From contig CM075990.1 of NCBI GenBank assembly GCA_038087875.1, forward strand, positions 496,001 through 560,000: 64,000 nt of DNA. Direction: 5' to 3'. Under the pieces are notes generated by a model. That model had not been told where the DNA came from. It was given only the letters and a program-made list of their open reading frames with translations, and searched no databases. This document shows positions 1-62,540 of the stretch, piece by piece. This DNA is from Malacoraja senta (lineage: Eukaryota). The position numbers and the translations under genes are program-made. Within the stretch, counting starts at the first letter, position 1; each line of letters begins with the position of its first letter.

Positions 1-35
1 CCACAAACAGGGGGCAGAAAATTCCACCGATAACC

Positions 36-1966
36 ATGTAGGTAGGTGGGTTTGGTTCTTGTCGAATCATATTAAGTGGGAATCACCTACAAGTTGGGGG
101 GAGATTACACTTCATTTTGAAGGAATGGTATGGGATAACATCAGATCCGTTTATACTGCACAGTATACAAGGGTTTCGAATTGAATTCCTTCTCAATTTG
201 CGTCCACCCACACAGCATACACCAAACTGGACATTTGTTTTCTCACAAAAAGAGAATTTGGAGGTACAAGCTGAAATTGAAAATTTATACAAAAAAGGGG
301 TAATTGAGAAGGCGGTTCACCAACCTCACCAATTTGTGTCTAATATTTTTCCTAGGCCAAAGAAGGATGGGAGCTGTCGAATCATCCTTGACTTGATGAG
401 CCTTAACACCTTTGTGCAGTATAAACATTTCAAAATGGAAACCTTTGTTACTGCCAAACAATTGATTTCCAGAGGATGTATGGCATGGATAGATCTTAAA
501 GATGCATATTATTCAGTGCCTGTTCATAGGGATCATCGGAGATATTTGAAGTTTAGCTGGATGAGGCAATTATGGCAATTTAAAGCACTGCCTAATGGGT
601 TAACCTCGGCCCCTAGACTATTTACAAAACTGTTAAAACCATTGCTGGGGCTACTCCGGGCTCAGAGTCATATTGTAATAGCTTATTTGGATGATATTTT
701 AATCATAGGGAAGACTCGGGAAGCAGCTGAATTATCTGTGTCAGCTGTTAAACTCATGTTTGAGAGATTGGGGTTGCTCAACCATCCAGTTAAATCCAAA
801 TTGATACCAGTTAGAGTTATTGATTATTTGGGATTCACTATTAACTCAACTCACATGTCTGTGACTCTGCCCAGGTGCAAGAGATTAGACTTAATTGAAG
901 GCTGTAACAAGCTCATGATGGAGCAGCAACCTTCAATTAGACATGTGACCAGCTTGATTGGCAAATTAGTGGCTGCCTTTCCAGCTGCACAGTTTGGACC
1001 TTTGCACTATCAAAATTTACAACGTGCAAAGGAGCAGGCACTCGGGGTACATGCAGGTCATTTTGACAAGCCTGTGCAATTAACAGCTGAAGCCATTGCT
1101 GAAGTGCAGTGGTGGATAGTGAGCATTTGGAGTTGCTCTGGGAAAGTTCTGATTGAGAAACCTTCAGTTGTCTTACAGACTGATGTTAGTACCCTAGGAT
1201 GGAGTGCTACTGATACCATCTCTAGCTGTGGAGGCAGATGGAATATGCATGAGGCATTTATTCTTCAATCACATGGGATTAGCTATTTAGAACTGTTGGG
1301 AGCATTCTATGGTGTTATGGCTTATTGTACTAGTATGCGTCACTTGCATGTTCAGCTTCAGATTGACAACACTACGGCAGTGGCGTATGTTAATCACATG
1401 GGTGGAATCAAGTCGGAATCTTGTGATAGATTGGCTAACCTTATTTGGCACTGGTGTATTACAAGAAATATTTGGGTTTCAGCTATCTACCTACCAGGTA
1501 GATTAAACATGGTGGCAGACACCAGGTCATGTAAATTCAATGACAACACAGAATGGATGTTGAATCATGATGTATTTAATGATATTGTTGTTCGGTATGG
1601 GATGCCAGATATCGATTTGTTTGCATCCAGACTCAATCACCAGTTACCGAAGTATGTTTCATGGGAACCAGACCCAGGGGCAGTAGCGGTAGATGCATTC
1701 TCGCTACACTGGGGTGGAATGTTTTTATATGCATTTCCCCCATTTTGCCTCATCATTCGGTGCTAGCTCAAGATCAAGCAGGACGACGCCTCAGGAGTTT
1801 TGGTGGTACCCGACTGGCCTACACAGCCATGGTTCCCACTCGTTTTGGGGATAATAACACAGCCTATTATGACTGTCCCGAAACGTAGTGACCTACTGGT
1901 GCACCCTGTAACTGGGGATCAACATCCATTACATGACCGTATTGATCTATTAATTTGCAGATTCTG
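36..1966 (+). pseudogene. DIRS pol: reverse transcriptase, RNase H and adenine-methyltransferase-like domain
   Basis: ORF 117-1766 has DLKDAY, LPNGLTSAP, YLDD, QTDVS..GW, IDNTTAV, DLFASRLN and YAFPPF. The in-frame ATG at 36 is followed directly by TAG, there is a premature TAG at 1764, and the homologous frame continues (VVPDWPTQPW) to TGA at 1966. Confidence 0.9.
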
Positions 1967-2938
1967 AGGAAGCCATACCTGGGGCTTGGATTATCCGATC
2001 GAACCATGGATGTGATCACTGCGGCCTAGAGGGATAGTACCAAAAAACAGTACATCTCTCATGTCAGGAAATGGGAGGTGTTCTGCTTATGAGGGAACAT
2101 AACATATCAAACGGCATGCATCTCAGATGTGCTAGAGTTTCTGTCAATGCTATATTTTGATGAAGGGTTGAGCTATAGTGCCATCAATAGTGCCAGGAGT
2201 GCCCTGTCATCATACTTATGGCTGGGGTCGGAACAACATTCTGTTGGATCTCACCCTTTAATATCCCGGTTTATGAAGGGTATATTTAATTCCAATCCCC
2301 CCAGGCCTAGGTACTCTGAAATCTGGGATGTGAGCATGGTACTCACGCTGCTTCGCCAGTGGGCTCCAGCCACATCCCTGTCTTTCCCCAAAATCACCCT
2401 TAAGGTGGTCTTGCTCATGGCGCTGGTTTCATCGCAACGGGTCCAGACGTTGCAGAAGCTGCGACTGGACAGGATGGTGTTATCTGGAAATAACATGACG
2501 TTTTTCGTTTATGATTTAATTAAGCAGAGCAGACCAGGGGTGTCAGGATTCAAGCTTAATTTTTCGGCATACCCCACGGATTTACGACTGTGTGTAGTTT
2601 TGCACTTGCAACATTATATCACGGTCACCAAGAGCCTCAGAGGCTCGGAATCAGCATTACTTATTAGCCACAAAAAGCCGCATAAGAAAGTGTCGATACA
2701 GACCATTTCAAGATGGCTGAAACAGGTTCTAGTTTGTGCAGGAGTAGACACTGACAATTTTAAATCTCACTCCACCAGGGCGGCATCAACGTCAGCAGCG
2801 AGGGCAATGGATGTCCCTCTCGACCATATCCTCGTGGCCGCAGGATGGTCAAATGAACTGACTTTTCAAAGATTCTATAACAAACCGCTTACTGAACCGG
2901 GGGTATTCGCCCATTCCATTTTAAGTTCTGTTTCATAG
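1961..2938 (+). pseudogene. DIRS tyrosine recombinase
   Basis: ORF 2129-2938 has SAINSARSALS, SSQRVQ (R), LIKQSR (K), HSTR, AGW and FYNK (Y). The N-terminal part from 1961 carries stops. Confidence 0.9.
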
Positions 2939-3113
2939 CTTCCCCCTGGGAGAGAGGGGTCGCTATTGTTTTTCTTTGTTAAATAAACCATTAACATGTT
3001 CAAATCAATGACATGGTTCAATGCATTGTTTATTATTCACTCATCCTGGGTCAATCGATGCAGTGAGATGCCTGGATTCGTATCTATGGCATGAAATCAC
3101 AGAGCTTTGAAAT

Positions 3114-3225
3114 CTTCATGGAATCACTCACGTGACTCCGAAGTAAAATAGTAAGATTAAACGAGAACTTAACAGTTTGAAGTTTGATCTTTATTTTATG
3201 AGGAGTTACGATGAGTGATTACGTG
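3114..3225 (+). repeat. DIRS internal complementary region (ICR)
   Basis: 3149-3225 is the near-exact reverse complement of 3369-3445. 3114-3148 is complementary to the family 5' end TTTTACTTCGGAGTCACGTGAGTGA seen at 36949 and 62542. Confidence 0.92.
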
Positions 3226-3444
3226 CCCACCGCTCCCAACCCTCAAATCACAAAGGTCATCTGGTAGTTCCAGGTTTCTGATCTTGCTATGTTACTTCAA
3301 TTACTGTTACCTGTGATTTCACACCGCTGCTTTGAAGATTGACGCGCATGCGGACTGGCGGGGTTCTTCACGTAATCGCTCATCGTAACTCCTCATAAAA
3401 TAAAGATCAAACTTCAAACTGGTAAGTTCTCATTTAATCTTACT

Positions 3445-3630
3445 ATTAACCTACATACCTCTATGTCTTTGGAGTGTGGGAGGAAACTGAAGATCTCGGA
3501 GAAAACCCACGCTGTCAAGGAGAGAACGTACATCCGTACAGACAGCACCCGTAGTCGGGATTGAACCCAGGTCTCCAGCGCTGCAAGCGCTGTAAGGCAG
3601 CAACTCGACCGCCGCCACCGTGCCGCCCAA
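3445..3630 (-). mobile_element. HE1/V-SINE-like tRNA-derived SINE, 5' half (target of DIRS copy A)
   Basis: Minus strand reads GGGCGGCACGGTGGCGG..GGGTTCAATCCC..GGTGCTGTCTGTACGG..TTCCTCCCACACTCCAAAGAC, like the other copies. Confidence 0.85.
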
Positions 3631-6225: not shown

Positions 6226-6429
6226 TGTAAAGAGTGTATAACGAGGCATCGTTACTTTACTATCTTTATTCATACTGGAGCATTACACATTGCACTAGCT
6301 GTACGTGGTCTGTCACAGGAACTGGAGGGCGATCTGTGGGTGGGGAGGTTGTAGATATACTTGTGATATGGGGAGTGGTTAGTAGGTATGAGGTCACTGT
6401 GTTAAAGGCACATGCATATCTCATCTACA
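6226..6429 (-). repeat. Gypsy 3' LTR
   Basis: Direct repeat of 10765-10968 with 2 substitutions seen. Minus-strand AATAAA at 6265-6270. Confidence 0.97.
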
Positions 6430-6442
6430 TCTTTCCTCTTCG
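6430..6442 (-). promoter_or_regulatory. Polypurine tract
   Basis: Minus strand CGAAGAGGAAAGA directly abuts the 3' LTR. Confidence 0.85.
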
Positions 6443-6498
6443 AAACGACAGGCAAATACAATGGTGACATGGCGACCACGGCTCATGCGCTAGGATAG

Positions 6499-9400
6499 TT
6501 AAACAAAATCGCCATAGCGGTCAGGCGGTTTGACAAGACGTCCCGCCCGGGTTCGTGTCTCGCCATCCACCCTTCCTGCAGGAGGAAGAGGCACCGGCGG
6601 GGACAGACGAACCTGAAAGGGAGAAACGGGAGGAGACGGAGGAGACCGCGGCACCGAACCCGGAGGGGATGCGAGATCGGGACCGGGAAGAGCGCGGGCA
6701 GGCGAGCGAGGACTAGTCGGAGCGGGGTGGAACGGAAGGGGCTGAGGAGGAGCAGAACATTGCATGTCAGGAAGGACGGGCAGAGCAACGCCCTGACGCG
6801 AAACAGGCAGTGGGGGAGCAAAGGGATCCGCGGCAGGAGGACGCGGCTCGTTGACGAGCCGAAGGTGCTGGCGGGACCGTCGGTAAATGGCACCAGCGTG
6901 GTCGACGAGATAGGACCTGGGCGACCCCGCAGAGCCGACGACAGTAGCGAGCTTGGAGTGACCGGGAGCGGTCTGCATACGGACAACTTGGCCGGGGAAG
7001 AGGCGCGGCAGCGGGTGGCAGGACCTGTCATGGGAACGCTGTTGGACGTCGTGCCTGAAGGCAATGCGTTTCTGAACCGCCGCAGGTGGGAGGATGGAGG
7101 GTATGAGGGAGCGCTGGGCCACAGGGAGCGGGAGTCTTGTAGCGCGAGACATGAGCCGCCGAGCAGGTGAACCCATGGCAGAGTCGCGGGAAATGTTCCG
7201 AAGGTTGAGGAGGGCCAGATGGAAGTCGGAGTTAATGCCACCACACTGTTCCAACAGGTGCTTCGCGCTGCGGACTGCGCGCTCGGCCAAACCATTGCTT
7301 TGCGGGTACTCCGGGCTGCTGGTGAAATGGCGGAAGTTCCATCTGGAAGCGAACGCTTTAAACTCGGAGCTCGTGAACTGGCTGCCATTGTCCGACTGCA
7401 GGGTTGCCGGGGGGCCGAAAGTGCCAAAATGAGGGTACAACCTATCGATGACGGCCGAAGAGGTCATGGAATGCAGCCGGTCGACCACAAACCAGCTGGA
7501 GTAGGAGTCAACGAGAACCAGGAAATGTTTGCCCCGCCACTCAAAAATGTCAGCGGCAAGCGCCATCCAGGGCAGTTCGGGCGCGGGCTGCTGTAGAAGT
7601 GGCTGACACTGCTGGTGGGGGGCGAGGCTGTTGCAGGTGGAACACGAGGAGACCCTCTCCCGGATGTATTTGGCCATATCCGGCCAATAGAACTGGCTCC
7701 TGGCGAGAGACACGGTGGCTTCGGCCCCAGGATGACCGCGGTGAGCGACTTGAAAATAGTGGTCGTGCAGCGCCGCGGGCACGACCACCTTGTGACCCTT
7801 CACCAACACGCCGTCGTGCAGTACGAGCTCGTCCCAGACCAGGAAGTAGGGCACGGCACCAGCCGGCAGTGCCGAACGACGGTCAGGCCAGCCCTGCCGG
7901 ATGACGGCAGACAGCTGTTGCAGGGCAGGGTCATTGGCAGTGTGTTCAACCAGGGACTTCATCTGCTGTGAGGGGACGATGTTCAATCGTAGCACCAATA
8001 ACTCAGACATTTCGTATTGGTGGCGAGCGGTGGACGTCAGCGGGGCGCGAGACAACGTGTCGGCCACGAACATGTCTTTGCCCTTACGATAAACCACCGT
8101 GAACGTGAAGCGCTGGAGCTGCAGCATCATGCGCTGCAGGCGTGATGAGGCCACATGGATTGACTTGTTGAGGATGGTGACAAGTGGCTGATGGTCAGTT
8201 TCAACGGTGAAAGTGTTGCCCACGATGTAGTCCCGGAATTTGGAGCAGGCAAACACCACGGCCAGTAGCTCCTTCTCAATCTGCGCGTAGTGCTGTTCGG
8301 TGGCGGTCATGGTGCGGGACGCGAAGGAGACAGGCAGCTGCAGGCCGTCATGGACCTGGAGACAGGCGGCACCGAGTCCGAACTGAGAGGCGTCGCAGGT
8401 GAGGACAATGGGACGCTGCAGGTCAAAGAACTTGAGCGTGGGGGTGCTGATCAGCTTAGACTTAAGAATGTCAAATGCCTTCTGATGGTTGGGTAACCAA
8501 AGCCAGGACGTGTCCTTTTTGATCAGATCCCTCAGGGGAGCGCTGAGCTCGCTGAGGTCGGGGATGAACTTCCCCAGGTAGTTTACCAAGCCTAGGAAGC
8601 GTTGCAGGCCTGCCACATTGGTAGGAGGGGGCATCCCTGAGATGGCAGCCGTTTTCTGCGGGTCTGGCTTTAATCCCTCAGCGGTGAATACATGTCCAAC
8701 ATAGGTTACCTCCGAGACGCGGAATCGGCACTTCTTGGGGTTCAGTTTCAAGTTGATTTGCCGGGCCCGGTCCAGGACCTGGCGGAGGTTGACATCGTGT
8801 TCGGCAACGTCCTTACCGTAAACGAGGATGTCGTCAACAATTATGGTGCAAGGTAGACCTAAAAACAACTGCTCCATTGTCCGCTGAAATACCTCGCTGG
8901 CAGAGTTGATCCCGAATGGCATTCGGAGGAACCGAAACCTTCCGTAGGGGGTGGCGAAAGTTGTCAAAATGGACGACCGCTCGTCCAGTGGTATCTGCCA
9001 GAAGGAGCTTTTGGCATCGAGGACAGAAAAAAACGTTGCTGGACCAACCTGTGCAGCGACATCTTCCACCGTTCTCATAGGGTAGTGAGGGCGTCTAATG
9101 GCCAGGTTGAGGTCTTTGGGGTTGATGCAGATGCGTATCTCGCTCATGTCCTTTTTAGCAGCAACAACCATGGAAGAGACCCAGCTGGTGGGCTCGACGA
9201 CCGCCTTTAGGATGCCCATTTGTACCATACTGTGTAGGGTCGCCTCCACTCTGTCCCTCATGGCGAAGGAGACACGGTGAGGAGCATGGACCACAGGAAC
9301 GATCTTATGGTCCACTACAATCTTGTAGCTGCAGGGTAGTTTGCCTAGCTTATCATCAAAGCGGTCGGGATAATCGGCCAGCGGGTCCATAAGAGTCTGC

Positions 9401-10668
9401 ACCTGGTGGATGTCACGGTGGAAGTACACCAGTCCCATTTCCTGGCATGCCTGGATCCCCAGCAGGGGAATGCATTTTCGATTGAGGAGATAGAAGGTGA
9501 GGGGCCGAGAGGTCTCTAGTATCTTACAGCGTAGCGTGGCCTTGCCCACAGGAGTAAGAATCTCCCCACCGTAGCCATGCAAGGTTGAGCTCTGGGAAAA
9601 TATCTGCTCATTAGTTCTTAGCTGGTTGAAAAGAGATGTTGACATTACGTTGGTCACAGCCCCCGTGTCGAGCTTAGCAGTGAAGGTCGAGTTGTTCACA
9701 GTGACTAGCACAGAAGGGTCCGTTATCATAGCAGGTGCGTCCAACACGGTAAACAAGTTGGTCTCCCCCTGAGAGGAGTCAGATGCAGAAACAGAATGTT
9801 CATCGGAATAGCACTGGGAGCTGAGCTCACTGTCAGCTTGTAGAAGGTTGTTTAAATTTCCCCTTCGAGCAGCGACAGGCTTCCCACGGGAACGACAAGC
9901 CGTAGCAAAATGGTTCAATTTTTTGCAGACATTACACGTTTTCCCCAAAGCAGGGCACACATTGAATTGATGAGTCGTGAAGTTGCAATTAGGGCACCTT
10001 TGCCGGGTACCTCCCCCTGTAGCAGCACCGAACCCCGGGGCGCGTCCCCCTCGAGCAGCGAGCGACCCCGGGGGTCGCGACTGGGGTGTGTTCATGAGAT
10101 GACTGGGAGTGCTGGCAAAGTTGATCGCCTGCTCAACCGGCGACGCCGCCGAGGAAACAGCTTCAGCTAAGCGAGTAGCGTGCATAGCATCGGCTAAAGT
10201 CAGATCCGGCTTGCGCAGAAGTTCGGCCCTGAGCTTCTCATCACGGAGACCGTAAACCAGAAGGTCCCTGAGAATCTCATCGGGGTTCCACGCGTGGAGG
10301 CGGCAGCGCCTGCCGAGGTGCCGCAGCGCAATGACATAGTTCTCAGCAGATTCCCCGGGGAGCTGACGCCGCGCGAACAGTTTAAAACGTTCTAAGATGC
10401 AATTTGTCGGAATGTCACAAATAGCGTCAAACTTAGCCAACAGACATACCGGGTCCCGGGCTGATTCTCCCGCAGCGTAGACGAAGAAGTCGGAGCGAGT
10501 CAGGGCCTCGGGACCAGCCAAGAGAAGCAGAGAGGCTTTGAGTGCGGCGGTGGCGTCAGGATGAGCGATCGTGAAATAGTGTTCAAAGTCGCGTTTGAAT
10601 ACGTCCCATCGAAGGGCGATGTCTAAATCGAAAACGAGCACATCGGGCTTACGGGCAGAAGAGGCCAT
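6499..10668 (-). CDS. Gag-Pol polyprotein (~1389 aa from the first ATG)
   Basis: Uninterrupted ORF: two CCHC knuckles (CPNC..H...C and CNVC..H...C), protease LDTGA, RT (LDAKSSFWQ, MPFG, IVDD), RNase H (CDAS, EKELLA, TDHQPL), integrase (HRGH..CSTC, ADIF, SDNG, AERAV) and a Pro-rich tail ending TRAGRLVKPPDRY. Confidence 0.95.
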   Translation of the reverse strand: MASSARKPDVLVFDLDIALRWDVFKRDFEHYFTIAHPDATAALKASLLLLAGPEALTRSDFFVYAAGESARDPVCLLAKFDAICDIPTNCILERFKLFARRQLPGESAENYVIALRHLGRRCRLHAWNPDEILRDLLVYGLRDEKLRAELLRKPDLTLADAMHATRLAEAVSSAASPVEQAINFASTPSHLMNTPQSRPPGSLAARGGRAPGFGAATGGGTRQRCPNCNFTTHQFNVCPALGKTCNVCKKLNHFATACRSRGKPVAARRGNLNNLLQADSELSSQCYSDEHSVSASDSSQGETNLFTVLDAPAMITDPSVLVTVNNSTFTAKLDTGAVTNVMSTSLFNQLRTNEQIFSQSSTLHGYGGEILTPVGKATLRCKILETSRPLTFYLLNRKCIPLLGIQACQEMGLVYFHRDIHQVQTLMDPLADYPDRFDDKLGKLPCSYKIVVDHKIVPVVHAPHRVSFAMRDRVEATLHSMVQMGILKAVVEPTSWVSSMVVAAKKDMSEIRICINPKDLNLAIRRPHYPMRTVEDVAAQVGPATFFSVLDAKSSFWQIPLDERSSILTTFATPYGRFRFLRMPFGINSASEVFQRTMEQLFLGLPCTIIVDDILVYGKDVAEHDVNLRQVLDRARQINLKLNPKKCRFRVSEVTYVGHVFTAEGLKPDPQKTAAISGMPPPTNVAGLQRFLGLVNYLGKFIPDLSELSAPLRDLIKKDTSWLWLPNHQKAFDILKSKLISTPTLKFFDLQRPIVLTCDASQFGLGAACLQVHDGLQLPVSFASRTMTATEQHYAQIEKELLAVVFACSKFRDYIVGNTFTVETDHQPLVTILNKSIHVASSRLQRMMLQLQRFTFTVVYRKGKDMFVADTLSRAPLTSTARHQYEMSELLVLRLNIVPSQQMKSLVEHTANDPALQQLSAVIRQGWPDRRSALPAGAVPYFLVWDELVLHDGVLVKGHKVVVPAALHDHYFQVAHRGHPGAEATVSLARSQFYWPDMAKYIRERVSSCSTCNSLAPHQQCQPLLQQPAPELPWMALAADIFEWRGKHFLVLVDSYSSWFVVDRLHSMTSSAVIDRLYPHFGTFGPPATLQSDNGSQFTSSEFKAFASRWNFRHFTSSPEYPQSNGLAERAVRSAKHLLEQCGGINSDFHLALLNLRNISRDSAMGSPARRLMSRATRLPLPVAQRSLIPSILPPAAVQKRIAFRHDVQQRSHDRSCHPLPRLFPGQVVRMQTAPGHSKLATVVGSAGSPRSYLVDHAGAIYRRSRQHLRLVNEPRPPAADPFAPPLPVSRQGVALPVLPDMQCSAPPQPLPFHPAPTSPRSPARALPGPDLASPPGSVPRSPPSPPVSPFQVRLSPPVPLPPAGRVDGETRTRAGRLVKPPDRYGDFV

Positions 10669-10750
10669 GACAAAGAAATAGGAGGGCGGGGGAAACAAAA
10701 AACTGGGACAAACTTAAATGATAAACCGATAAACAGGAGGCGCAAGGTAA

Positions 10751-10764
10751 GTTATTTGACACCA
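10751..10764 (-). promoter_or_regulatory. Primer binding site (tRNA-Leu-like TGGTGTCA)
   Basis: Minus strand TGGTGTCAAATAAC immediately follows the 5' LTR. Confidence 0.75.
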
Positions 10765-10968
10765 TGTAAAGAGTGTATAACGAGGCATCGTTACTTTACT
10801 ATCTTTATTCATACTGGAGCATTACACATTGCACTAGCTGTACGTGGTCTGTCACAGGAACTAGAGGGCGATCTGTGGGTGGGGAGGTTGTAGATATACT
10901 TGTGATATGGGGAGTGGTTAGTAGGTATGAGGTCACTATGTTAAAGGCACATGCATATCTCATCTACA
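10765..10968 (-). repeat. Gypsy 5' LTR
   Basis: TGTA..TACA ends; direct repeat of 6226-6429. Confidence 0.97.
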
Positions 10969-12235: not shown

Positions 12236-13052
12236 TAGACAATAGACAATAGGTGCAGGAGTAGGCCATTTGACCCTTTGAGCCAGCACCACCATTCAAT
12301 GTGATCATGGCTGATCATCCCCAATCAGTACCCCGTTCCTGCCTTCTCCCTATATCCCCTGACTCCGCTATCTTTGAGTCCTATCTTGCTCTCTCTTGAA
12401 AGTATCCAGAGAACCTGTCTCCACCGCCCTCTGAGGCAGAGAATTCCACAGACTCCCAACTCTCTGTGAGTTTCCTCATTTCCTCATCTCCTTTCTAAAT
12501 GGCTTACCCCTTATTCTTAAATTGTGGCCCCTGGTTCTGGATTCCCCCAACATCGGGAACATATTTCCTCCTGATGAACAAGGACCCCCAGATCCCGTTG
12601 TACTTCCCCTTTTCCTAACTTGATGCCATTTAGATAGTAATCTGCCTTCCTGTTTTTGATACAAAAGTGGATAACCTCACATTTATCCACATTAAACTTC
12701 ATCTGCCATGCATCTGCCCACTCCCCCAACCTGTCCAAGTCACCCTGCATTCTCATAGCATCCTCCTCACAGTTCACACTGCCACCCAGCTTTGTGTAAT
12801 CTGCAAATTTGCTAATGTTACTTTGAATCTCTTCATCCAAATCATTGATGTATATTGTAAATAGCTGCGGTCCCAGCACCGAGCCTTGCGGTACCCCACT
12901 GGTCACTGCCTACCATTCTGAAAGGGACCCGTTAATCCCTACTCTTTGTATCCTGTCTGCCAACCAATTGTCTATCCTTGTCAGTACTCTACCCCCAATA
13001 CCATGTGCCCTAATTTTACCCACTAATCTCCTATGTGGGACCTTATCAAATG
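12236..13052 (-). mobile_element. CR1 LINE 3' fragment with internal deletion
   Basis: AFDKVPH, SGVPQGSVLGP, SKFADYTKL and WQMKFNVDKC. It jumps from DLGVLVH to the 3' end at ~12570 and has a (TCTATTG)n tail. Confidence 0.9.
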
Positions 13053-13414
13053 CCACTGAAAGTCCAGGTATACTGCCCACTGTGCCAAGATATGCCTCCA
13101 GCAATGGTAACTCCATGGTCTCTTCATATAAAATCAATTTTCATGCACATATTTTGTATCCTTATGTTGCATTATTAAAGGATTCTGCATTCTTCAGTAG
13201 ACAATATCTGATAGGATATTTTAATTATCAAGCAAACTTGAGGAGCTCCAGAACAGTTCCAAGCATTTGTCATGATCAAAATGCAACTCATTTGAAGAAC
13301 TGATAAAAAAAAAAAAGATAGGAGGTATGAATAAGACAGGGGAAAGTTGTGGAGTTAAAGGTGATGGTTGGTTGGTTGGTTGGTTGGTTGGTTAGTTTTG
13401 ACACAGAGGTTGTT

Positions 13415-13730
13415 TAGTTTGGTTTACTTTATTGTCAAGTGTATCGAGGTACATTAAAAAGCTTTTGTTGCGTGCTATCCAGTCAGCAGAAAGACAATAC
13501 ATGATTACAATCGAGTCATTTACTGTGTATAGGTCCATGATAAAGGAATGTAACGTTTAGTGCAAGGCAAAACCAGCAAAGTCCAATCAAGGAAAGTCCG
13601 AGGTTCACTAATGAGGTCGATCGTAGTTCAAAGCTGCTCGCTAGTTGTGGCAAGTTGATTCAGTTGCCTGATAACAGCTGGGAAGAAACTGTTCCTGAAT
13701 CTGGAGGAGTGCATTTCACTCTTCTATACT
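13415..13730 (-). mobile_element. Rex1/Babar-like 3' UTR fragment
   Basis: Same 3' end as 21502-22305 and 23806-24438 (TTCTTCCCAGCTGTTATCAGGCAACTGAA..GACAATAAA). Confidence 0.75.
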
Positions 13731-13734
13731 GTAT

Positions 13735-16700
13735 AATAGCAAGATTAAACAAGAACTTACCAGTTTGAAGTTTGATCTTTATTTTATGAGGAGTTACGTT
13801 GGTGATTACGTGAAGAAGTCCCGCCTGTGCGCATGCGCGTCAATCTTCAAAGCAGCGGTATGAAATCGCAGATAACAAAATATTTGAAGTAACATAGTAA
13901 GATCAGCAATATGAGAACTACCATATGACCTTTATGAGAGAGCGGGTTGGGCATGGTGGGCACGTAATCACCAACGTAACTCCTCATAAAATAAAGATCA
14001 AACTTCAAACTGGTAAGTTCTCGTTTAATCTTACTATTTTACTTCGGAGTCACGTGAGTGATTCCGTGAAGAGTTCAAAGCTCTGTGATTTCATGCCGTA
14101 GATTCAAATCCCGGCGTCTCACTTCATCCATTGACTCAGGATGAGTGAATAATCAACAATGGATTAACCATGACATTGATTTAAACGTATTAATGGTTTA
14201 TGTGAATAAATAAATCAATAGCAACCCGTCTATCTCAGGGGACGCTAAGATTTGAATGCAAAACAGAATGGGCAACTAGCCCTGGGTCGGCAATCAACCT
14301 ATGAAAAAACATTTTTTCGAAAACTAATTTACGTGACCATCCTGCGGCCGCGAGGAGATGGTCGATGGGAATATCCATTGCCCTGGCCGCTGATGTTGAT
14401 GCCGCCCTGGTGGAATGAGATGTAAATTAGTAGTTAATACCCGCATAAACCAGAACCTTCTTCAGCCACCTTGAAATAGTCTGAACAGACCTTTTCTTGT
14501 GTGGTTGTTTGTGGCTAATAAACAATGCTGCCTCTTAGGGTTCTGGTGGCCTTGTTAAAATATAGCAAACGTACTCATAGACACGCGAGTCCTTGGGGTA
14601 TGCCGAAATATGACTTAGGATGTAGCTGGAGCCCCCTGGTGAAGTATTGTTAACAAACTGTACATATCCTATACTGTCTATACTTGTACTGAGAACTTAT
14701 GTTAAAGATATCTCTTACAAACTCGAAATCCGGGGTTGAAAACCTGACAGAGTGGGTCCCGTTTGCTGCAGCCAATATGATGGGAAAGTACGTTGGGCAC
14801 AGTTAATGGCCCTATAACTGAAATATTGTCAAAACCCAAATGTAACATTAACATTAAACAAACCGCTTCCAAACTACTCAATAGGAAATGTACTGCTTTT
14901 TCGGTGCTATCCCCGCACTCTGCAATGAGCACATCCATGGATTGATGTAACAATCCGACCCGTAAGGCAGTCCATTCAGAATGTGTAAGCCAATAATTGT
15001 TTTATTATGCAGAGGCTGGCTTCCTGAACCACAGTTTGAACCAGCAAAGTTTTCGTTTTTAGAATAACCGTATATGGTTGTATTATTATGCCTGACGGAA
15101 GCGGGAAGCATGGCTGCATAGCCAGTCCGACTGTACGAAAACTAAAGCGAGATCTTGCTGACTTTATTTCAAGACCCGACTGATGAGGCAAAATGGAGAA
15201 AGGCATAAAAGAACATTCCTCCTTCTTGTGGCGAAAACATATCTCTCACCACTGTTATAGCACATATTTTTGCAATCAGTAAAAAAGCATGAACCATATT
15301 TTCCTAAATACTTTGTGATTCAACACTTATTCCGTGTTGTCCTGAATCTGAACTTGATGATAAACCAGTGGCAAGAAATTAGGCAAATATTACAGGATAC
15401 TACTTGATTGCCATGTGACTAACATCTGCCACCACCGTATTGTATCAACTTGAAGCTGGGCTTGTAGATTATGTATTCGCTCACTAGCCCTTTATCCATG
15501 GGATGCGTCTAGCGTCTATAGCTAGTTGATACCAACAACTGAAGAATTGGCAACTCATGCAAATCTCCACCTCCAACTAGAGATGACATTCGCAATTTTC
15601 CCTCTTAGAGCACTTAGCTGGAGCAATGCTGAATACTGTTTGTTCATCATTGTGACTTAGGTAGCTTCAGCTGGTGATAGCATAAGCCAGTTAACAATCA
15701 CCCACATGTCATTTGAGAGATTGCTACTTTGCACGATGTCAGTTCCCCGACTTGCACAGCTGACTCACAGCTACTATATTGCCAATACTCTACATTAATA
15801 GAATTCAGCTTTATAACAGGTTTCTATTAACTCCAATCTCGTGCCCCAAGGCGGAGTCATAACTAATCAATAGTTAAAGGTAAATTCCAATGACCAACAA
15901 GTCTATTTGGTAACAACTTAAGTTAGCTGGATGGATGAGCCCTATATCTCAAATATAGTTTGAGACTGAACCGGTGATTTTAACAAAATACAGCATTTGA
16001 AATATCATACAGACCAGATATAACAAGTGTTTTCGAACTCTGAGTCCAAACACCGATTTTATCATTAGTTGAATACCCTGGGAATATAGTTGAACCCATT
16101 TTGCAATATTTTACTGTTATCAGTTAAATTTTTCATAATGAACAGGCCACTCCTGCCATCATTCCATGGGCGCTTTGCACAATTTTCGAGCCTGTCTTGA
16201 AAACGACAATTCTGGCCCTAATTCCAAACTTGCTTGGAATGCTAGTATTGTGCCCTCTAAGCAGATGACAATGCTTTTATCCTTTGTATGCTATACAAAC
16301 AAGTGTAAATATTACCTACTTGAGAGTGGTCCACTTACCCATGTTTCGGAAGTGCCGGACCCAGCTTGTTGAGTAGGACTGGTAGGGTACGTGGAACCTG
16401 TGCCCAGCTGTCATGCTGCCACCAGCTTCAGTGAACTGCCCACTGCCGATGAAGGCATAGGGTGCATTGCCGTTCATCCGTGGAGCTGCAGAGCACCAGC
16501 TGCGCATCTGAGTCGACGGCCGGCTTGTTCCTGGTCCAACCCCGGAATCTGCACCCCTCTTGTAGGGATACCTCCTTTTTTCAGATTAGCCGACCACCGG
16601 TGGCTTAACCTTGCTGCATCTCGGACAGCTGCCCTCCATCGATTGTTCTAGCGAACGCAGTGATTCCTGAGCCCAGCAGCTTCAGGATTCTTGCAGCTCA

Positions 16701-18220
16701 CCTGAACCCATATCACCTGGTTCACTGCCGGCACCTTAAGCAACACGCAGTTCCCCGGGGTCTCGTGCTTCTTTGCGGTCTCATCCATCCTGAGCTCCTG
16801 TAGCTGATGGGAGACTAAGTAATTTATCGTGGAGGCCAACTCATCTCCCAGTGGCTCTCCTGACTCTGACGGGACAGCGAATTGTACTGCCAGGAATGGG
16901 ACATCTGGCAGCTGCCGTCTTCGCCTGGATTGAACTCATCGTCATAGTCGGGGTCAGAACTCAGCTGACCCATTGTACGCGCCTCATCAATGAGGGTGCT
17001 ATCGAGCAGCCCTCTACTAGGTGGTGCTGGCGCGGCCTCTTCTCCAGCCTGCCGCCAACACTACTCCTGCTCCTGGAGTGTGCCCTGGGGGAACAACCTA
17101 TGCAAAAGGTGCTCCATTTGGGATAACGGTTGAAAAATGGTATCCAGCCCCGGAGAGGAATTCGCCGCTCCTGACACTGCCGAGTCAGTGGGCCTAACAG
17201 ACTTGCTCGTGGCCTTACGCCCGACTGGCGCTGGCTCTGTGCTTTGCAGCACCAAGTCTGCAGTCGCCCCGCTCCCGGCCGGCGACTGTGCAGGGGTATA
17301 AGGCAGCCGTTCACAGACCGCACTCCCGCGGCTGTCTACCAATTTTCTTGCGGCTTGCCTCTTTCCCTTGGTCGTCTTGTCCATGGCGTTGTCCTGGAAG
17401 AAATACACAGCACGCCACCACAGCAAAACAACCCGAACTCCAGCTAAGTTTGTGGCACTTACCTGGAGATTTAAATCCTCACAGCCTCCGTGCGCCAATG
17501 TGGCTAGCGCGTTCACACACTAAGCAGCCCTGCCCCAGGTGCTGCTGGCGTGGCCTGTACCATAGGCCTGCGCTCATACACTAAGCAGCCCTGTCCTAGG
17601 TGCTGCTGGCGTGGCCTGTACCATAGGCCCACGCTGGTGCCTGTGAAGGGTTAAAAAATAACAACAGAATGCATACAAATTCATACTTATTTCCGGAACG
17701 GAAACCCTCTCAGCCCGACTCCTCCGAGTTCAATAGGGCTGTTTGATTTAATCTGTGCTCTCATCCCATGCCTGGGGCCCACAGAACGACGATTCTGTGA
17801 GCCACTGACCGCACTGTCAGCGACTCTGGCGGTAACCCCGCCTCCCTGCCCCCGTGTTCTACCCGACCCCGGGAACCACAGCAGGTTTGAAACCACTGAC
17901 CGCTTTGTCAGTGGATCTAAACGCGAACCCGACAACCCGACTGTCCGCTTCCGCGGTCGGAACTGGGGTCTCCCCACAGCCCATAGTCGGTCCACTCACC
18001 GGACTTCGCCAAATCCTGCAGGATACCTCTGTGAAGAGAGGTTCCTGCACGAACATTAAACCTGGCAAGTAATAAAAAACTTACCTGTAGGTTTCAACTT
18101 ACCGCCGGCAGGAGCGATGCCCTGCCAGTCCGGTGCTTCGCCATGCGACCGACGATATGACGCGCATGCGCACAGGTGGGACTTCTTCACTGAATCACTC
18201 ACGTGACTCCGAAGTAAAAT
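13735..18220 (-). mobile_element. DIRS1-like element, copy B: complete termini, heavily deleted coding region
   Basis: 5' end ATTTTACTTCGGAGTCACGTG at 18220. ITR core 18158-18190 pairs with 13810-13842. ICR at 13961-14072. YR remnant (HSTRAAS-like) at ~14330-14520 and gag start ATG at 17384. Confidence 0.92.
17518..17635. repeat. Two-copy 61-bp tandem repeat in DIRS copy B leader
   Basis: CACTAAGCAGCCCTG..GGTGCTGCTGGCGTGGCCTGTACCATAGGCC occurs twice. Confidence 0.9.
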
Positions 18221-18437
18221 GTAGTTTGTGTAGAACAGGTTAAAGCGGAGACCGAGGAACTTTAAAGCTTACGGTAAAGCAGGGGAGAAGCTGTTTTTTA
18301 AATAAGACCTAAAACTGTGGGAAGTATGTGAATCACAGTGGTGACTCTCATCATACTAGACTGAATGAGGTACTATGAGCAAACAAAGACAAGAAGGTAA
18401 TTTATAATTAGTGACGATCCTTGAGCATAAACTGGAT

Positions 18438-18750
18438 ATTTAGTTTAGTTTAGTTTAGTGATACAGCATAAAAACAGGCCCTTCGGCTCACTGAGTCCAC
18501 GCTGACAAGCAATCACCCGTACATTAACACCATCCTACATGCACCAGGGACAATTTACATTTATACCATGCCAATTAACCTACAAACCTGTACGTATTTG
18601 GATTGTGGGAGGAAACAAGAGATCTCAGGGAAAACCCACGCAGGTCACAGGGAGAACATACAAATTGCTTACGGACAGCACCCGTAGTCTGGATCGAACC
18701 CGGGTCTCTGGTGCTGTAAGGCAGCAACTCTACCGCTGCTCCACCATGCA
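18438..18750 (-). mobile_element. HE1/V-SINE-like SINE
   Basis: tRNA-like head with B box GGTTCGATCC, central domain and (CTAAA)n tail. Confidence 0.88.
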
Positions 18751-21501: not shown

Positions 21502-22305
21502 TTTAGTTTCAGTTTAGTTTATTGTCATGTGTACCGAGGTACAGCGAAAAGCTTTCGTTGCGTGCTAACCAGCCAGCGGGAAAGACAATATATGATTATA
21601 ATCAAGCCATTCACAGATACGTGAAAAGGGAATAATGTTTAGTGCAATGTAAAGCCAGTAAAGACCAAATATAGGTAGTCCGAGGGTCCCCGATGAGGTA
21701 GATAATGGTTGAGGACTGCTCTCGGGTTGCAGTAGGATGGTTCAGTTGCCTGATAACAGCTGGGAAGAAACTGGCCCTGAATCTGGAGGTGTGCGTTTCA
21801 CACTTCTATACCTTTTGCCCGATGGGAGAGAGGAGAAGAGGGAATGGCCAGGGTGCGACTCGTCCTTGATTATGTTGCTGGCCTTGCCGAGGCAGCGTGA
21901 GGTACAAATGGAGTTAACAGAAGGGAGGTTGGTTTGTGTTATGGTTTGGGCTGCAATTTGCTGCAATTTCTTGCGGTCTTAGATGGAGCTGTTCCCAAAC
22001 CAAGCTGTAATGCATTCCGATAAAATACTTTCTATGGTGCATCTGTAGAAGTTGGTGAGAGTTGTTGGGGACATGCCGAACTTCCCAAGCCCTCTAAGGA
22101 AGTAGAAGTTGGTGTGCTTTCTTGCTCATTGCTTCAATATGGGTGGTCCAGGAGAAGTTGTTGATGATATTTACTCCTAGGAATTTGAAGTTTTCAACCA
22201 TCTCTACTTCAGTGCTGTCAATGCAAACATGGTATGTGTCCCACTTCACTTCCTGAAGTCGATCACTATCTCCTTTGTCTTGCTGACATTGAGAGAAAGG
22301 TTGTT
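21502..22305 (-). mobile_element. Rex1/Babar-like LINE 3' fragment
   Basis: VENFKFLGVNI, KKAHQ and IIKDESHPGHSLFS.LPSGKRYRS; GTGACAATAAA tail. Confidence 0.85.
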
Positions 22306-23805: not shown

Positions 23806-24438
23806 GCACACCAATGCCTCTACTTCCTTTGAAGGCTTAGAAAGTTTGGCATGCCCCCTACAACTCTCACCAACTTCTAAAGATGCACCATAGAAAGCAT
23901 TTTATCAGGATGCATCACAGCTTGGTTTGGGAACAGCTCCATCCAAGACCGCCAGAAATTGCAATAAATTGTGCGTGTGGCCCAAACCATCATACAAACC
24001 AACCTCCCTTCTATTGACTCCATTTATACCTCACGCTGCCTCAGCAAGACCAGCAGCATAATCAAGGACAAGTCACACCCTGGCTACTCCCTCTTCTCCC
24101 CTCTCCCATCGGGCAAAAGGTATAGAAGTGTGAATACGCACACCTCCAGATTCAGGGACTGTTTCTTCCCAGCTGTTATCAGGCAACTGAATCATCCTAC
24201 CACAACCAGAGAGCAGTGTTGAACTACTATCTACCTCTTTGGCGACCCTTGGACTGCCCTTGATCAGACTTTGCTGGCTTTACCTTGCGCTAAATGTTAT
24301 TCCCTTATCATGTATATATCCATTGTAAATGGATCGAATGTAATCATGTCTTGTCTTTCTGCTGACTGGTTAGCAGGCAACTAAAAGCTTTTCACTGTAC
24401 CTCGGTTGACGTGACAATAAACTAAACTGAAACTAAAC
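23806..24438 (+). mobile_element. Rex1/Babar-like LINE 3' fragment
   Basis: LPSIDSIYTSRC..SHPGYSLFSPLPSGKRYRS; GTGACAATAAACTAAAC tail. Confidence 0.85.
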
Positions 24439-26209
24439 AATTTTAAATCTGTGGCATTTTTTAAACTGGGAGATATGTAGTCAGCCCACACAGGAATTAT
24501 AAGTGAGATAGTTAAGGTTCTCTTCTCTGTTCAAGTTGAAAGTTAAATTCACACACTGCCCAAGTGAAAAAGTAATTTCTAACTCTGAACGTATTCCTCT
24601 GAAAAACTTGGCTGTAGTGCAGAAGGATCAATTTGTGCTGGAGGACTCTGCACAATGGTCTTATCAGCAACAGCAATCCCTGTTGATCCTGCAAATAAAT
24701 ATTTGATACATTGACAAAAATGTTCCACAGAGGTTGCATGAAGCAATATTATGATAGGATCATTTGTGAAGAGAAATATGTGTAATTGCTGGATTACTTC
24801 TCAGCAGTAACTCCAAATACGTACAGGTATGTAGGTTAATTGGCTTGGTAAATGTAAAAATTATCCCTAGTGTGTGTAGGATGGTGTTAATATGCGGGGT
24901 TCGTTGGTTTGGTGTTAAGTCAATGGAAAAGCAATAGGGAACAAGATGCTAATTTCCGAGTATGAAAATGTCCATAACTTTTTTAATACTGAAGATATGA
25001 AAGTGAATTAGATATCAAATTAAACTTCTTTTTATGCTTTATCTGATGGGATAAATTGCAGACTTGATTTTTTAAATCTCAAAATCTCAAAATGTTGTAA
25101 CGTTCCTACTTTGTGTGAAAAACTAACCTCTCAGGTTCCTATTAAATCTCTCTCCCCCCCCCCCACCCCCCTCAGCTAAAACCTATGTCCTCTGGTTCTC
25201 GATTCCCCTACTCTGGACAAGAGACTCTGTGCGTCAACCAGATCTATTCCTCTCATGACGTTTGTGCACTTCTTTGTTTCACCATGTCTTCACTGCTCAT
25301 ACCACATGTCTTCACTGCTCATACCACATCCAAGCATTGGACTTCCCAACTTCAAATCCTTCAAAACATTATGTTTTCACCAAGTTTTGGGCACATGTAG
25401 GTGAGAGCACCTCTGCAGATGGCCTACTTAGTACTGATAAAAATGCAAATTCTTGAAGTTCTCCTTTCATCATTATTCATAGGATGGACCACATAATGGT
25501 TGCCGAGGAAAGTGGTGAGGGAGGCATTCAAATAATTTGAACTAAGAGGGCAGCGTCATTGTAGAAATCTTAAGAGAAGCTTATGAGCAGTTTGGTATTC
25601 AATGGCATTGCAGACACCATTGTGTATAATTAGAAAACTGGCAAAGCAAACTTGTCTATTGATCCTTGGTCAAAGATTCTTGTTCAAAGAGAGTGAGCGG
25701 ATGAGAGGAAGAGCAACATGGGAGATCTAAAACACTGCTGTTCACATGAACCAAGGTTAGTTTCAGCAGTGAGTGAGAATCTGAGAGGCGGAGCAGCACG
25801 GGAGATTTCAAAAGCATCCGTTGAGTCTGTTTGAAACTATTCCGACCAGTGTATAAAAGGAAGGCTAGCACTGGCAGAGTGGCTAACTGAGAGCGGCTGT
25901 GTTGGGAGGAGGTGTGTTGAGGTGAAGGGGCCGTGTTTGAGGATAAATATGGAGTCTTTAACATGAGGCTTTGGCAAGGAAGCTGGGCGATGGCAGAATA
26001 AGGTAAGGCCAGTTTTATTTCCCTTTTGCAAGTTTTGCTTGGTCTTAATCCAGTTCGGAAGTTAGGGAAGGCAGGGAAACTTCCAATATCCCTAACTACA
26101 CCGGCGAGAATTGTGTCCAGTTGCTGCTCCTGACCGACTGAGTCACGGAACTGGAGCTCTGGGTTGATGAACTTAAGACCATCTGGGAGAATGAGAGAGG
26201 AGTCATAGA

Positions 26210-34934: not shown

Positions 34935-35918
34935 GGAGGAGTCATCTTGGGGAACGGCTGCTAATCAGCAGCCGTCCGTTTAATTCACTTTTTTTTTGTA
35001 GTTCTAGTGAGTCCTGTGTTCTGTTTGTGGGAGAAATAGACTTTTTAATGTAGGGGGAAGGGGGTAACTATATTTCTAGGTCCCTACCTGGTCGGTGAGG
35101 CAGCTTTTTCTCCGGGCTGCCCCGTCGACCCGTCCTCGTGGCCTACCAGCGGGCGTGGAGCGGCGTTTCCTGGCGGGGACCGCCCAGTACCTCGGCTTCG
35201 GTGGCAGCATAGCGCTGGAGCGCTATCGCGGAGCGGAGCGGGCGATGCCTTGCCTGGGTCGCCGCGCTGGATCGACGCGCTGGAGCTCCGGTGAGCTGTG
35301 ACCGCCGAGCTCAACACCTCCGGGCTTCGGGGCTGCGGAGCGGAGCGGGCGGCGCCGACTTCAACATCGGGAGCCTTGGAGCTCCAAACCGGCGCGGCCT
35401 TGTCGGCTTCGGAAGCCGCGGACTCCAGTAAGGAAGCGGCCGTTCCAGGTGGCCCAGCCGCTGAGAGGACTCTCCCGACGCCGGGGCAACAGCACCCGGC
35501 GAGAACGGCCAGGAACATCGGGCCTCCGTAGAGGCAATAGCGGAGGCCTCAATAGGCCTGATTTTGGGAGAACTGGGGATGGGGCTGGACATTGTGCCTT
35601 CCCCCACAGTGGTAACCATCCAGTGGGGCGATGATTTTTGTGTGTTAGTGATTATTTTAGTCTGTGTCCAAGATGGCTGCCGGAAGGGAGAGTGTACGCT
35701 GGCGCGGTTTAGCTGCCGCTGCCGCTGCTCTCTCTCTTCACATTGTGTTTCTGATTTTTTTTGTTTTTGGATCGAATTCTGTCTTTAATTTGTGTATTGG
35801 TGATGTCTTTACTATTTATTTTACTCCGATTATATGTTTTTTTACTTGTTAAATTCTGTAAGGTGTCCTTGAGACTCTTGAAAGGCGCCCATAAATAAAA
35901 TTTATTATTATTATTATT
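34935..35918 (+). mobile_element. GC-rich non-autonomous retroposon with L2-like tail, inserted in a CR1 3' end (34795-36190, minus)
   Basis: Body homologous to 41022-41797. 3' end TGTAAGGTGTCCTTGAG..GAAAGGCGCCCATAAATAAA plus (ATT)n. Confidence 0.7.
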
Positions 35919-38900: not shown

Positions 38901-39556
38901 TTCAAAATGGAAACATTTACTAATGCCATTCAGCTGATCACAAAAAAACAAAAACAAAAAACAAAAATTGCTATATGGCAAGCATAGATCTGCAAGATGC
39001 ATATTCTGTGGCAATGCATGGTAATGATCAAAGATATTTGAAATTTAGATGGATGAGTCAGTTATGGCAATTTAAAGCATTGCCCAATGGCCTGACTTCA
39101 GCACCAAGATTATTCACTAAATTACTGAAACCAATTTTAGCTCTGCTAAGAGCTGAGGGCCACGTACTAATGGCCTATTTAGACGATATTCTGATTGTAG
39201 GGTACACTTTCGCTACTGCAAAATTGTCAGTATCTAAGCGTCAAGTACAATTTTGAGAAAATGGGTTTCATTATTCACCTACAAAAATCTAAATTGTTAC
39301 CAAGCAAAAAGATTGATTACCTAGGGTTCACAATTTACTCTGAACACATGGTAATCATTTTGCCAAAAGAGAAAAGGCTGCAGTTAATTGAAGGTTGCAT
39401 CAAACTCATAAACGAGGACACACCTTCAATTAGAGAAGTGGCAAGCTTGCTGGGCAAATTAATCGCTGGGTTTCCAGCTGTCAGGTTTGGACCATTGCAT
39501 TATCAATGTTTGCAGAGGGCTAAGGTACAAGCATTAAAAATGAATACAGGGCCATT

Positions 39557-39756
39557 NNNNNNNNNNNNNNNNNNNNNNNNNNNNNNNNNNNNNNNNNNNN
39601 NNNNNNNNNNNNNNNNNNNNNNNNNNNNNNNNNNNNNNNNNNNNNNNNNNNNNNNNNNNNNNNNNNNNNNNNNNNNNNNNNNNNNNNNNNNNNNNNNNNN
39701 NNNNNNNNNNNNNNNNNNNNNNNNNNNNNNNNNNNNNNNNNNNNNNNNNNNNNNNN
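39557..39756. other. Assembly gap (200 N)
   Basis: Run of N bases. Confidence 1.
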
Positions 39757-41021
39757 GCATTTTATGGCCTTAAAGCTTATTGCACTAATATGCGAAATGT
39801 GCATGTTCAGGTACAGGTTGACAATACTACAGCTGTAGCATACATAAATCACATGGGTGGTATTAAATCAGAATCATGTGATAGATTGGCAAATGAAATT
39901 TGGACCCGGGGTATTGCCAGGAAAATTGGCTGTCAGCAATATATTTACCAGTAAAATTTAATATAATTGCAGACCAAAGATCATGTAAATTTAATAATAA
40001 TACAGAATGGATGATAAATCAGGATATATTTACACAAATTATAACACAATTTGGAATGCCAGAGATTGATTTGTTTGCATCAAGACTGAACCACCAATTG
40101 CCTAAGTATGTGTCGTGGGAACCTGATCCTGGTGCAGTAGCGGTGGATGCTTTCTCGCTACATTGGGGTGGTATATTTCTGTATGCATTTCCACCATTTT
40201 GTTTAATCAACAGATGCATACAGAAAATTAAACAAGACTCAGCCTCAGGGATTTTGGCAGTACCAGATTGGCCTACACAGCTATGGTACCCACTGGTGTT
40301 AAAAATGATCCCCAAAAAAACCCTTATGATTATTCCAAAGCAGATAAAACTGCTTGTACACCCTGTAACTGATGAACCACATCCTTTACATGATCGTATT
40401 GGTTTGTTGATTTGCAGATTCTAAGAAGGCCATATCTTGGAAAAGGATTATCAGATCATACGGTGGATGTTATGACAGCAGCCTGGAGGAATAGTACCCA
40501 GAAGCAGTACATTTCCTATATAAAGAAATGGGAGGTGTTTTGTTCAGGAAAGAATATTGCATATAACACAGCAGAAATTTCAGATGTAATAGAGTTTTTT
40601 TTAAACTCTATACTTCAAATTAAAATTAAGTTATAGTGCAATCAATACTGCATGAAGTGCACTCTCTGCATATTTAAGCAGTGAATCAGAACAAAATCCA
40701 ATAGGATCACTTCCTTGGGTCTGTAGGTTTATGAAAGGAATTTTCAACTCCAATCCTCCTAGACCTAGGTATACAGAAATCTGGAATGTAAAAGATGTAC
40801 TGATGCTGCTGATGGATTGGAATCCTATTGAAACTCTGTCATTAGCCAAAATCACCATGAAATTGGTTATGCTCATGACATTAGTTTCAGCTCAGAGAGT
40901 TCAAACATTACAGAAACTAAGAATTGACATAATGAAGGTAGGGGCAAATGCCGTTACATTCTATGTCTATGATTTACTGAAGCAAAGTAGACCTGGGTTC
41001 ACGGGATGTAAGTTGGAGTTT

Positions 41022-62432: not shown

Positions 62433-62540
62433 ATAAACTTGTGTGTGGGTGATAATTGATCAGCCCAGATTCAATTGGTCGTAGGGCCTATTTCCACACT
62501 TCCACCATTTACTTTCATCTCTGAACTAAACTAAACTCTG

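Follow-up and report, generated by a model that had tools for sequence, protein, structure and literature searches.

The window analysed in this study is a 64-kb stretch of Malacoraja senta DNA (contig CM075990.1, positions 496,001 to 560,000 of the forward strand), and all coordinates below count from its first letter. It is repeat-rich animal DNA containing short interspersed nuclear element (SINE)-like repeats, long interspersed nuclear element (LINE) fragments, an intact Gypsy element and four DIRS-type pieces, which we call copies A to D. The element under study, copy B (13735-18220), read on the minus strand from 18220 to 13735, is a DIRS1-like element with ATT at either end (Table 1). 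It possesses inverted terminal repeats (ITRs) with a 33-nt core and a divergent outer part, together with an ICR (internal complementary region) whose sequence is complementary to both the 5' start (36/37 positions) and the 3' end (74/76) of the element. The circular junction is AAT, and there is no target-site duplication (TSD). Its genes survive as fossils that are collinear with copies A and C, in the order gag (ORF1, the first open reading frame), reverse transcriptase/RNase H/methyltransferase (RT/RH/MT) and tyrosine recombinase (YR). The layout of ITRs, ICR and right extension, the ATT ends, the AAT junction, the gene order and the HSTR motif are the same as in the DIRS1-like elements described in PMC3266345, in Table 3 of which ATT is the commonest DIRS1-like end. 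The 33-nt core and the 37+76-nt ICR are also close to those of the molluscan entries described there (cores of 31-36 nt, ICRs of 39-45 plus 86-88 nt). The end self-matches of copy B are inverted, and do not form the split direct repeats of PAT, Ngaro and VIPER elements. Its sole direct repeat is a 61-nt tandem duplication in the leader (17509-17635), with a 34-nt echo at 17005-17038; the gag region of copy C holds a repeated motif similar to this duplication. We also observed a pair of GT(A/G)AGT splice-donor-like motifs at leader positions +111 to +151 (18070-18105 on the minus strand in copy B; 37060-37105 and 62650-62680 on the plus strand in copies C and D), which is retained in the three leaders despite divergence elsewhere, possibly for the production of spliced mRNAs.

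Table 1. Features of copy B in the order in which they are read on the minus strand.
Feature	Position	Strand	Evidence or remark
5' ATT trinucleotide, recombination core (AAT on the plus strand)	18218-18220	-	Same ATT ends in copies A, C and D
Left terminus: 37 nt complementary to the ICR plus conserved ITR core (18158-18190)	18158-18220	-	1/37 mismatches to the ICR, 1/33 to the right core
5' leader with GT(A/G)AGT donor-like motifs and 61-nt tandem duplication (17509-17635)	17385-18157	-	Multi-copy depth in 4/4 sequencing runs
Broken gag-like ORF1	16499-17384	-	tblastx blocks against copy C, 38-63% amino acid identity
Fossil RT/RNase H/MT (pol)	14995-16500	-	Pfam RVT_1 on copy A; motifs lost, 22 stops
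Fossil 5' half of YR, decayed like pol	14617-15003	-	10/31 conserved residues kept
~170-nt deletion that takes out the first catalytic-Arg box of YR; boundary between old core and better-kept 3' segment	14612-14617	-	
3' half of YR, broken yet far less decayed, codon-biased; HSTR kept	14247-14611	-	29/198 columns changed
ICR; arms overlap at the circular-junction trinucleotide 14036-14038	13961-14072	-	
Right terminus, made up of ITR core (13810-13842) and ICR-complementary extension with terminal ATT (13735-13737)	13735-13842	-	

The interior of copy B is collinear with copy A over the full length from RT to YR, with a pairwise alignment score of 1802 compared with 263-446 for five shuffles. 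A first-pass annotation of this DNA had described the interior as riddled with small deletions and only patchily alignable to copy A; the deletions do occur throughout, but the alignment runs the whole length. In a three-way MAFFT alignment with copies A and C, we identified 36 deletions totalling 328 nt in copy B between 14612 and 16400. Copy C also has letters at 34 of the 36 sites (3 of the 34 fall in its N gap), and among these 34 polarised deletions, 25 are not multiples of 3, 16 are at least 5 nt long and 11 are 1 nt. An additional deletion of ~170 nt (14612-14617) lies at the boundary between alignment blocks. Pairwise deletion counts for pol alone ranged from 45 to 68 depending on the gap penalty, and indel counts between A and C, which are distorted by the N gap of C, were not used. 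The coding span of copy B, from the gag ATG near 17384 to the end of YR near 14247, is ~3.14 kb, against ~4.2 kb in copy C once an insert of ~770 nt is subtracted, in agreement with the ~3.1 and ~4.2 kb estimated previously.

Copy B carries 291 private substitutions in the 1106 three-way pol columns, and these are uniform over the codon positions (99/111/81, p=0.12); the private pol changes of A (20/15/47, p=1.5e-5) and C (44/22/88, p=1.6e-10) are biased toward the third position. At core columns where A and C agree, gap neighbourhoods excluded, copy B differs at 268/733 (37%), a figure that includes some ordinary family divergence and residual misalignment; at second codon positions only, 95/293 of these columns are changed. 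The identity of its coding part to copy A is 65-76%. In pol, the YLDD, DLKDAY and DLFAS motifs are gone and projection onto the frame of A reveals 22 stops, while in YR the first Arg box has been deleted and the Tyr motif lost, with HSTR retained; copy B is thus not autonomous. The gag-like ORF1 contains a stop near 17061 and frameshifts, and lacks ~29 nt (16692-16695) and ~200 nt (16610-16613) relative to copy C; beyond 16640, a forced global alignment was uninformative and tblastx blocks were used instead. The gag, pol and YR genes of copy B are all dead.

The cis-acting parts of copy B, namely the left terminus, the ICR, the right terminus and the ATT core, are intact and mutually matched. 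The ICR arm at 13961-14036 shows 2 mismatches in 76 nt to the terminus at 13737-13812, and the ITR cores (13810-13842 and 18158-18190) show 1 in 33, exactly as first counted; a third pair missing from that count, ICR 14036-14072 and 18184-18220, has 1 mismatch in 37. Together, the pairs differ at 4/146 positions, or 1.4% per arm (Poisson confidence interval 0.4-3.5%). The ICR has undergone 0/93 lineage-specific changes and is 97% identical to that of copy A, the corresponding value for the right terminus being 92% (pairwise alignment). The use of the ends as a clock presumes the Cappello model as given in PMC7192593, in which each terminus is restored with the help of the ICR and the opposite ITR. 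In this model, the outer termini are missing from the transcript; the right ITR serves to rebuild the left one, the ICR supplies the extremities, and YR recombines the circle so formed into the target trinucleotide. At the upper limit of this terminal clock, 39 substitutions would be expected in the 1106 pol columns, where copy B shows 291. Copy A provides an internal control, with 3/79 differences in the same ICR arm, yet just 3 premature stops and no frameshift in 2.9 kb. On its own, the terminal clock is weak, for the differences are few and hairpin arms could be homogenised, and the conclusion of old decay therefore leans on the contig data presented below. Indeed, the 3' ICR arm and the terminus, ~150 nt apart, fold as a hairpin of -102 kcal/mol, and one might suppose that a single very old insertion decayed in place while its ends were kept alike by hairpin correction or by gene conversion from young copies. 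The strong likeness of termini across families, with the ICR 97% identical to that of A, and the better-kept 3' half of YR, which could be a conversion tract, fit such a history as well. However, the 5' arm and the ITR core, which are 4 kb apart, match equally well.

To characterize the interior beyond the window, public sequencing contigs were used. Words from 14600-17500 were present in 20 of the 21 runs listed (8 studies; 6 coded organisms and unlabelled ones), the best word share among the 21 being 0.34, at ~96.6% identity. Four runs, X2, X3, X4 and X16, one per organism, were aligned to 12600-18440 at 85% likeness, and the results below come from the best-supported rows of this alignment (12 of 70 indel rows and 15 of 368 joints). 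All 17 bins of 14550-17864 were covered in 4/4 runs. Single interior contigs had depths of 533-636 in X2, with 2-4 differing letters, against a single-copy flank at 23.7 (22-27 times), of 336 and 690 in X3 against flanks at 43-48 (7-15 times) and of 442 in X4 against 27 (16 times); at core sites 15886, 16317 and 16323, the variant-carrying contigs of X2 had a mean depth of 67-109 times the flank. These ratios, which are lower-bound estimates, presume flank contigs at full single-copy depth, and summed depth does not equal copy number. The small run X16 had cover in all bins of the interior but in neither of the single-copy flank bins, as expected for a low-coverage run assembling repeats alone.

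The contigs also carry the lesions of copy B. Record 27 of X4 (15629-15965) spans 8 deletions amounting to 48 nt and is 16 nt shorter than copy B with 18 gap letters, so that at most one letter can have been put back. Record 12 of X2, at a depth of 568, crosses the ~29-nt gag deletion with 0 gaps, and record 19 of X3 (172 nt, 2 differing letters, no gap) crosses a 1-nt deletion and three more nearer its ends. Records 2 and 3 of X16 have the 7-, 5- and 3-nt deletions of copy B, and record 4 of that run contained no deletion to compare (nine contig pieces checked). An intact family gag, as in a TR-GAG-like element, was rejected for the 3' part, because the gag deletion is common to high-depth contigs. 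Not everything is held in common: small insertions relative to copy B occur at 15400 and 15564, and record 2 of X16 has 135 unaligned letters at one end. In addition, a 52-nt skip from 15348 to 15401, which is not in copy B, occurs in X3, X4 and X16 at depths of 249, 137 and 19; other deleted subfamilies have therefore been amplified too, and the contigs point to several deleted subfamilies of the decayed element. No second copy of the decayed interior was found by self-BLAST within the 64-kb window. The dead interior, with common deletions, is thus present at multi-copy depth in four organisms, and in three runs the disabling lesions are common to contigs at 7-27 times flank depth. This is the pattern that the first-pass annotation had proposed to look for, multiple loci with the same deletions, and the contigs of other organisms contradict the single-copy interior with low-coverage consensus error that it had named as the opposite outcome. 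Errors in the assembly consensus might have been suspected from the 11 of 34 polarised deletions that are 1 nt long and from the N gap elsewhere in the window. They have next to no probability as the source of the interior lesions, given that 16/34 deletions are at least 5 nt, that independent short-read contigs from other organisms have the same deletions with 0-3 gap letters, that the differences between X2 and copy B are transition-rich (149/263 places), and that a Gypsy element only 3 kb away has an intact 1404-aa ORF and long terminal repeats (LTRs) matching at 202/204 positions.

Copy B is inserted into the end of a high-copy repeat, found at 13410-13729, 21502-21811, 24120-24440 and 62126-62439; the copies at 13413 and 21502 are directly oriented around copy B and could mediate its deletion in a relative. 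The right-flank contigs of X3 and X4, which are ~5% diverged from the window, align from 18218 and 18220 only, the X3 alignment starting exactly at the shared AAT, and they continue with 48 and at least 31 further letters, respectively, that are unlike the strongly conserved 5' element end. This pattern suggests an empty ATT site, as judged from unaligned overhangs whose letters were unseen. Because the organisms of X3 and X4 hold the decayed family while the site is apparently empty, the decay appears to predate the insertion of copy B. The earlier proposal that the decay is older than the insertion thus gains support from the clock mismatch, the multi-copy shared deletions and this probable empty site. 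Decay in place, which predicts a single-copy interior with private deletions, is highly improbable in view of a multi-copy interior whose deletions are common to four organisms and of a site that seems empty in two. It might also be asked whether the decayed interior was amplified passively, by segmental duplication, in a satellite-like array or as the cargo of another transposon, since no record covers a whole copy and the layout of the other copies is unseen. Nevertheless, depth is raised across all of copy B but remains that of single-copy DNA in the adjoining single-copy bins (13185-13379 and 18255-18440); both junctions fall exactly on ATT, the trinucleotide at which the flank contigs of X3 and X4 depart; and the termini and the ICR are co-matched. 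Passive amplification is accordingly quite unlikely.

We conclude that copy B very probably inserted moderately recently, as a member of a multi-copy non-autonomous DIRS1-like family; the master lineage of this family would have lost all coding capacity long before, and the decayed state was most likely amplified in trans. The suggestion in the first-pass annotation of a parasite replicated in trans agrees with the dead genes, the intact ends and the multi-copy shared lesions, from which the trans step itself would follow. Several points weigh against this conclusion. First, no contig spans copy B, and another full-length copy bounded by ATT junctions of its own was not encountered, so that intact ends would have to be supposed for the other copies; moreover, at 85% likeness, a closer unseen autonomous family could raise the depth in places. 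Second, besides the overhangs on which the empty site depends, X2 shows 0 substitutions in 418 nt of the left flank, which is unexplained alongside its lack of the private alleles of copy B at most listed sites, and it gives no cover at 18255-18440, a gap that proves nothing with 88% of the run read; the copy B locus may have been deleted or be polymorphic in the organism of X2. Third, the truncated construct of PMC7192593 gave cDNA only, short of direct evidence for the integration of an ORF-less construct mobilised in trans by DIRS proteins.

Decay is uneven along copy B, and has affected the core much more than either the gag blocks or the 3' half of YR. In the 3' half of YR (14250-14611), 29 of 198 conserved columns are changed, compared with 268 of 733 in the core (p=1e-9), and the changes follow codon position, at 3/74 for position 2 vs. 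26/124 for positions 1 and 3 (p=8e-4). When residue conservation in YR was scored against 40 of the 120 external recombinases listed, 10/31 conserved residues were kept in the N-terminal part in copy B, 33/35 in A and 28/35 in C, and 34/50, 49/51 and 40/51, respectively, in the C-terminal part. The 3' half also has lesions of its own, including small deletions, stops and the lost Tyr motif. The gag blocks are codon-biased relative to C (28/13/49 changed of 80 per position), though, having been chosen as tblastx hits, they are biased toward conservation. Because the 3' half of YR is useless without the deleted Arg box, its protein-level conservation is best explained by later acquisition. There is about an even chance that everything from the ~170-nt deletion to the 3' end came back later from a helper still able to code, through template switching, in which case that deletion (14612-14617) would be the junction. 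No contig bridging 14612 was seen among the contigs listed. Alternatively, the family would be the same non-autonomous one and its mosaic would result from constraint at the RNA level, such as signals for packaging or priming within gag and the 3' half of YR, or from staged gene loss, without recombination. The 3' half of YR does adjoin the cis-acting ICR and, with 34/50 residues kept against 49/51 in A, is itself damaged; the choice of gag blocks as tblastx hits favours conservation; and none of the 10 best YR relatives compared, out of 120 listed matches, is closer to copy B than copy A is, which leaves no nearer donor. The only named match to the recombinase of copy A among the 120 comes from the skate Leucoraja erinacea, at 58% identity, and the SINE-like repeats of the window are elasmobranch in appearance. 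What this alternative accommodates less easily is a conservation that follows codon position, a protein-level signature, in a half-ORF without its first Arg box, the 5' half of the same ORF having decayed like pol, and a conservation boundary that falls on the ~170-nt deletion. We consider it possible, though less likely than not.

Under the reading of copy B as a member of a non-autonomous family, its amplification would proceed as in the DIRS model. The element would be transcribed from the left ITR, and an autonomous DIRS family whose ends are almost identical would supply the Gag and RT/RNase H that package and reverse transcribe the RNA. The termini would be rebuilt on the ICR and the circle closed at AAT, and the helper tyrosine recombinase would recombine the circle into a genomic ATT. 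Every such cycle would re-match the termini and the ICR, resulting in selection on the ends and drift of the interior. According to PMC7192593, the ICR is essential and the DIRS RT acts in trans, and the same is inferred there for the other proteins. The ICR of copy B is 97% identical to that of A though the coding part is only 65-76% identical, and a helper with compatible ends therefore exists or existed in the genome; copy A is a candidate partner by its ICR and right terminus (92%), but itself has 3 stops and the same coding distance. Taken jointly, these data allow a tentative reading, to which we give slightly less than an even chance: copy B belongs to a long-lived and near-full-length DIRS parasite that outlived its genes by ~0.4-0.5 substitutions/site, comprises several deleted subfamilies, persists in at least 4 related species and swaps in a helper 3' end (the 3' half of YR, the ICR and the right terminus) by template switching to fit whichever DIRS family is active.

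Non-autonomous YR elements are already known, namely TOC1, SIRE and, by name, DIRS-N1. TOC1 has split direct repeats of the PAT type and is not known to contain a pol or YR fossil, and DIRS-N1 is a non-autonomous vertebrate DIRS by the naming convention of repeat libraries. Unlike TOC1, copy B is of the ITR/ICR type with collinear fossils. TOC1 of Chlamydomonas reinhardtii is an active nonautonomous DIRS retrotransposon and resembles copy B as a non-autonomous member of the DIRS order mobilised in trans (bioRxiv 2022.06.16.496473). SIRE, a derivative of VIPER in Trypanosoma cruzi, is ~430 bp long with split direct repeats and is, like copy B, a non-coding derivative of a YR retrotransposon, its mobility in trans being left open there (PMC6681497). 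Zebrafish DIRS-N1 (PMC5400779) is known here by name alone and may or may not share the architecture of copy B. The DIRS1-like elements described in PMC3266345 (Piednoel et al. 2011) differ from copy B, in which none of the three ORFs is alive and it is this dead form that was amplified. The first-pass annotation had likened the element to large retrotransposon derivatives (LARDs) and terminal-repeat retrotransposons in miniature (TRIMs); the analogy holds for function, but not for structure, as the collinear gag, pol and YR fossil is kept and the features of LTR elements are absent. A fossil-pol interior is nearer to Morgane of wheat, and a recombined end nearer to ETn of the ETn/MusD pair in mouse. 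LARDs and TRIMs use the machinery of autonomous partners and have direct LTRs, a primer-binding site (PBS) and polypurine tract (PPT), integrase, TSDs and non-coding interiors (PMC6696364), whereas copy B, which at 4.5 kb is LARD-sized, has inverted ends, an ICR and a pol/YR fossil. The literature searched, with Repbase, supplements and most subscription journals lying outside the search, yielded no description of DIRS elements of the ITR/ICR type that were amplified as a non-autonomous family with fossil ORFs. Copy B clearly exemplifies a sort of parasite that has been little described, with no new mechanism.

The remaining DIRS copies and repeats of the window were also recorded. Copy A (1-3448, plus strand) is a 3' part cut by the window start, with pol and YR frames lacking frameshifts and carrying 3 premature stops, and its 3' ATT end adjoins a SINE-like repeat. 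Copy C (36948-42702, plus strand) is full length with matched ends (~3 differences in ~130 nt), and shows several frameshifts, a ~130-nt RT deletion and an N gap at 39557-39756; its YR contains the ~770-nt insert (41027-41797), which has an inverted homologue at 35053-35647. Copy C may represent an earlier stage of such decay. Copy D (62541-64000, plus strand) is a fourth DIRS 5' end that starts with ATT and is 73% like the first ~200 nt of copy B; the 1.4 kb beyond its start holds no long ORF and no clear gag match, and it may be another non-coding derivative. The young Gypsy element (6226-10968) encodes RT, RNase H and integrase in a 1404-aa ORF on the minus strand, between 204-nt LTRs with 2 differences. 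Two LINE fragments (43143-44994 and 57377-59267) are inverted and 83% identical over 1.9 kb, the latter with an endonuclease ORF ahead of it.

Annotators normally take a shredded DIRS interior for an ancient relic and date it by its distance to an autonomous consensus; for copy B, an age obtained in this way would exceed that of the insertion by a factor of roughly ten or more. Tests of DIRS replication are confined to Dictyostelium, as far as PMC7192593 describes, and a natural family that was amplified although its genes were dead provides genomic evidence that Gag, RT and YR act in trans in an animal, while the parts that such a family kept or lost mark the cis signals. If the joint reading is true, copy B would also preserve a natural record of recombination between families during DIRS replication, and its deletions would map the cis sequences that this process needs. 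Among Xenopus tropicalis DIRS-like consensus sequences, 36 of 75 are degenerate in repeats or ORFs (bioRxiv 2021.08.05.455354), and similar lineages may therefore hide in existing libraries.

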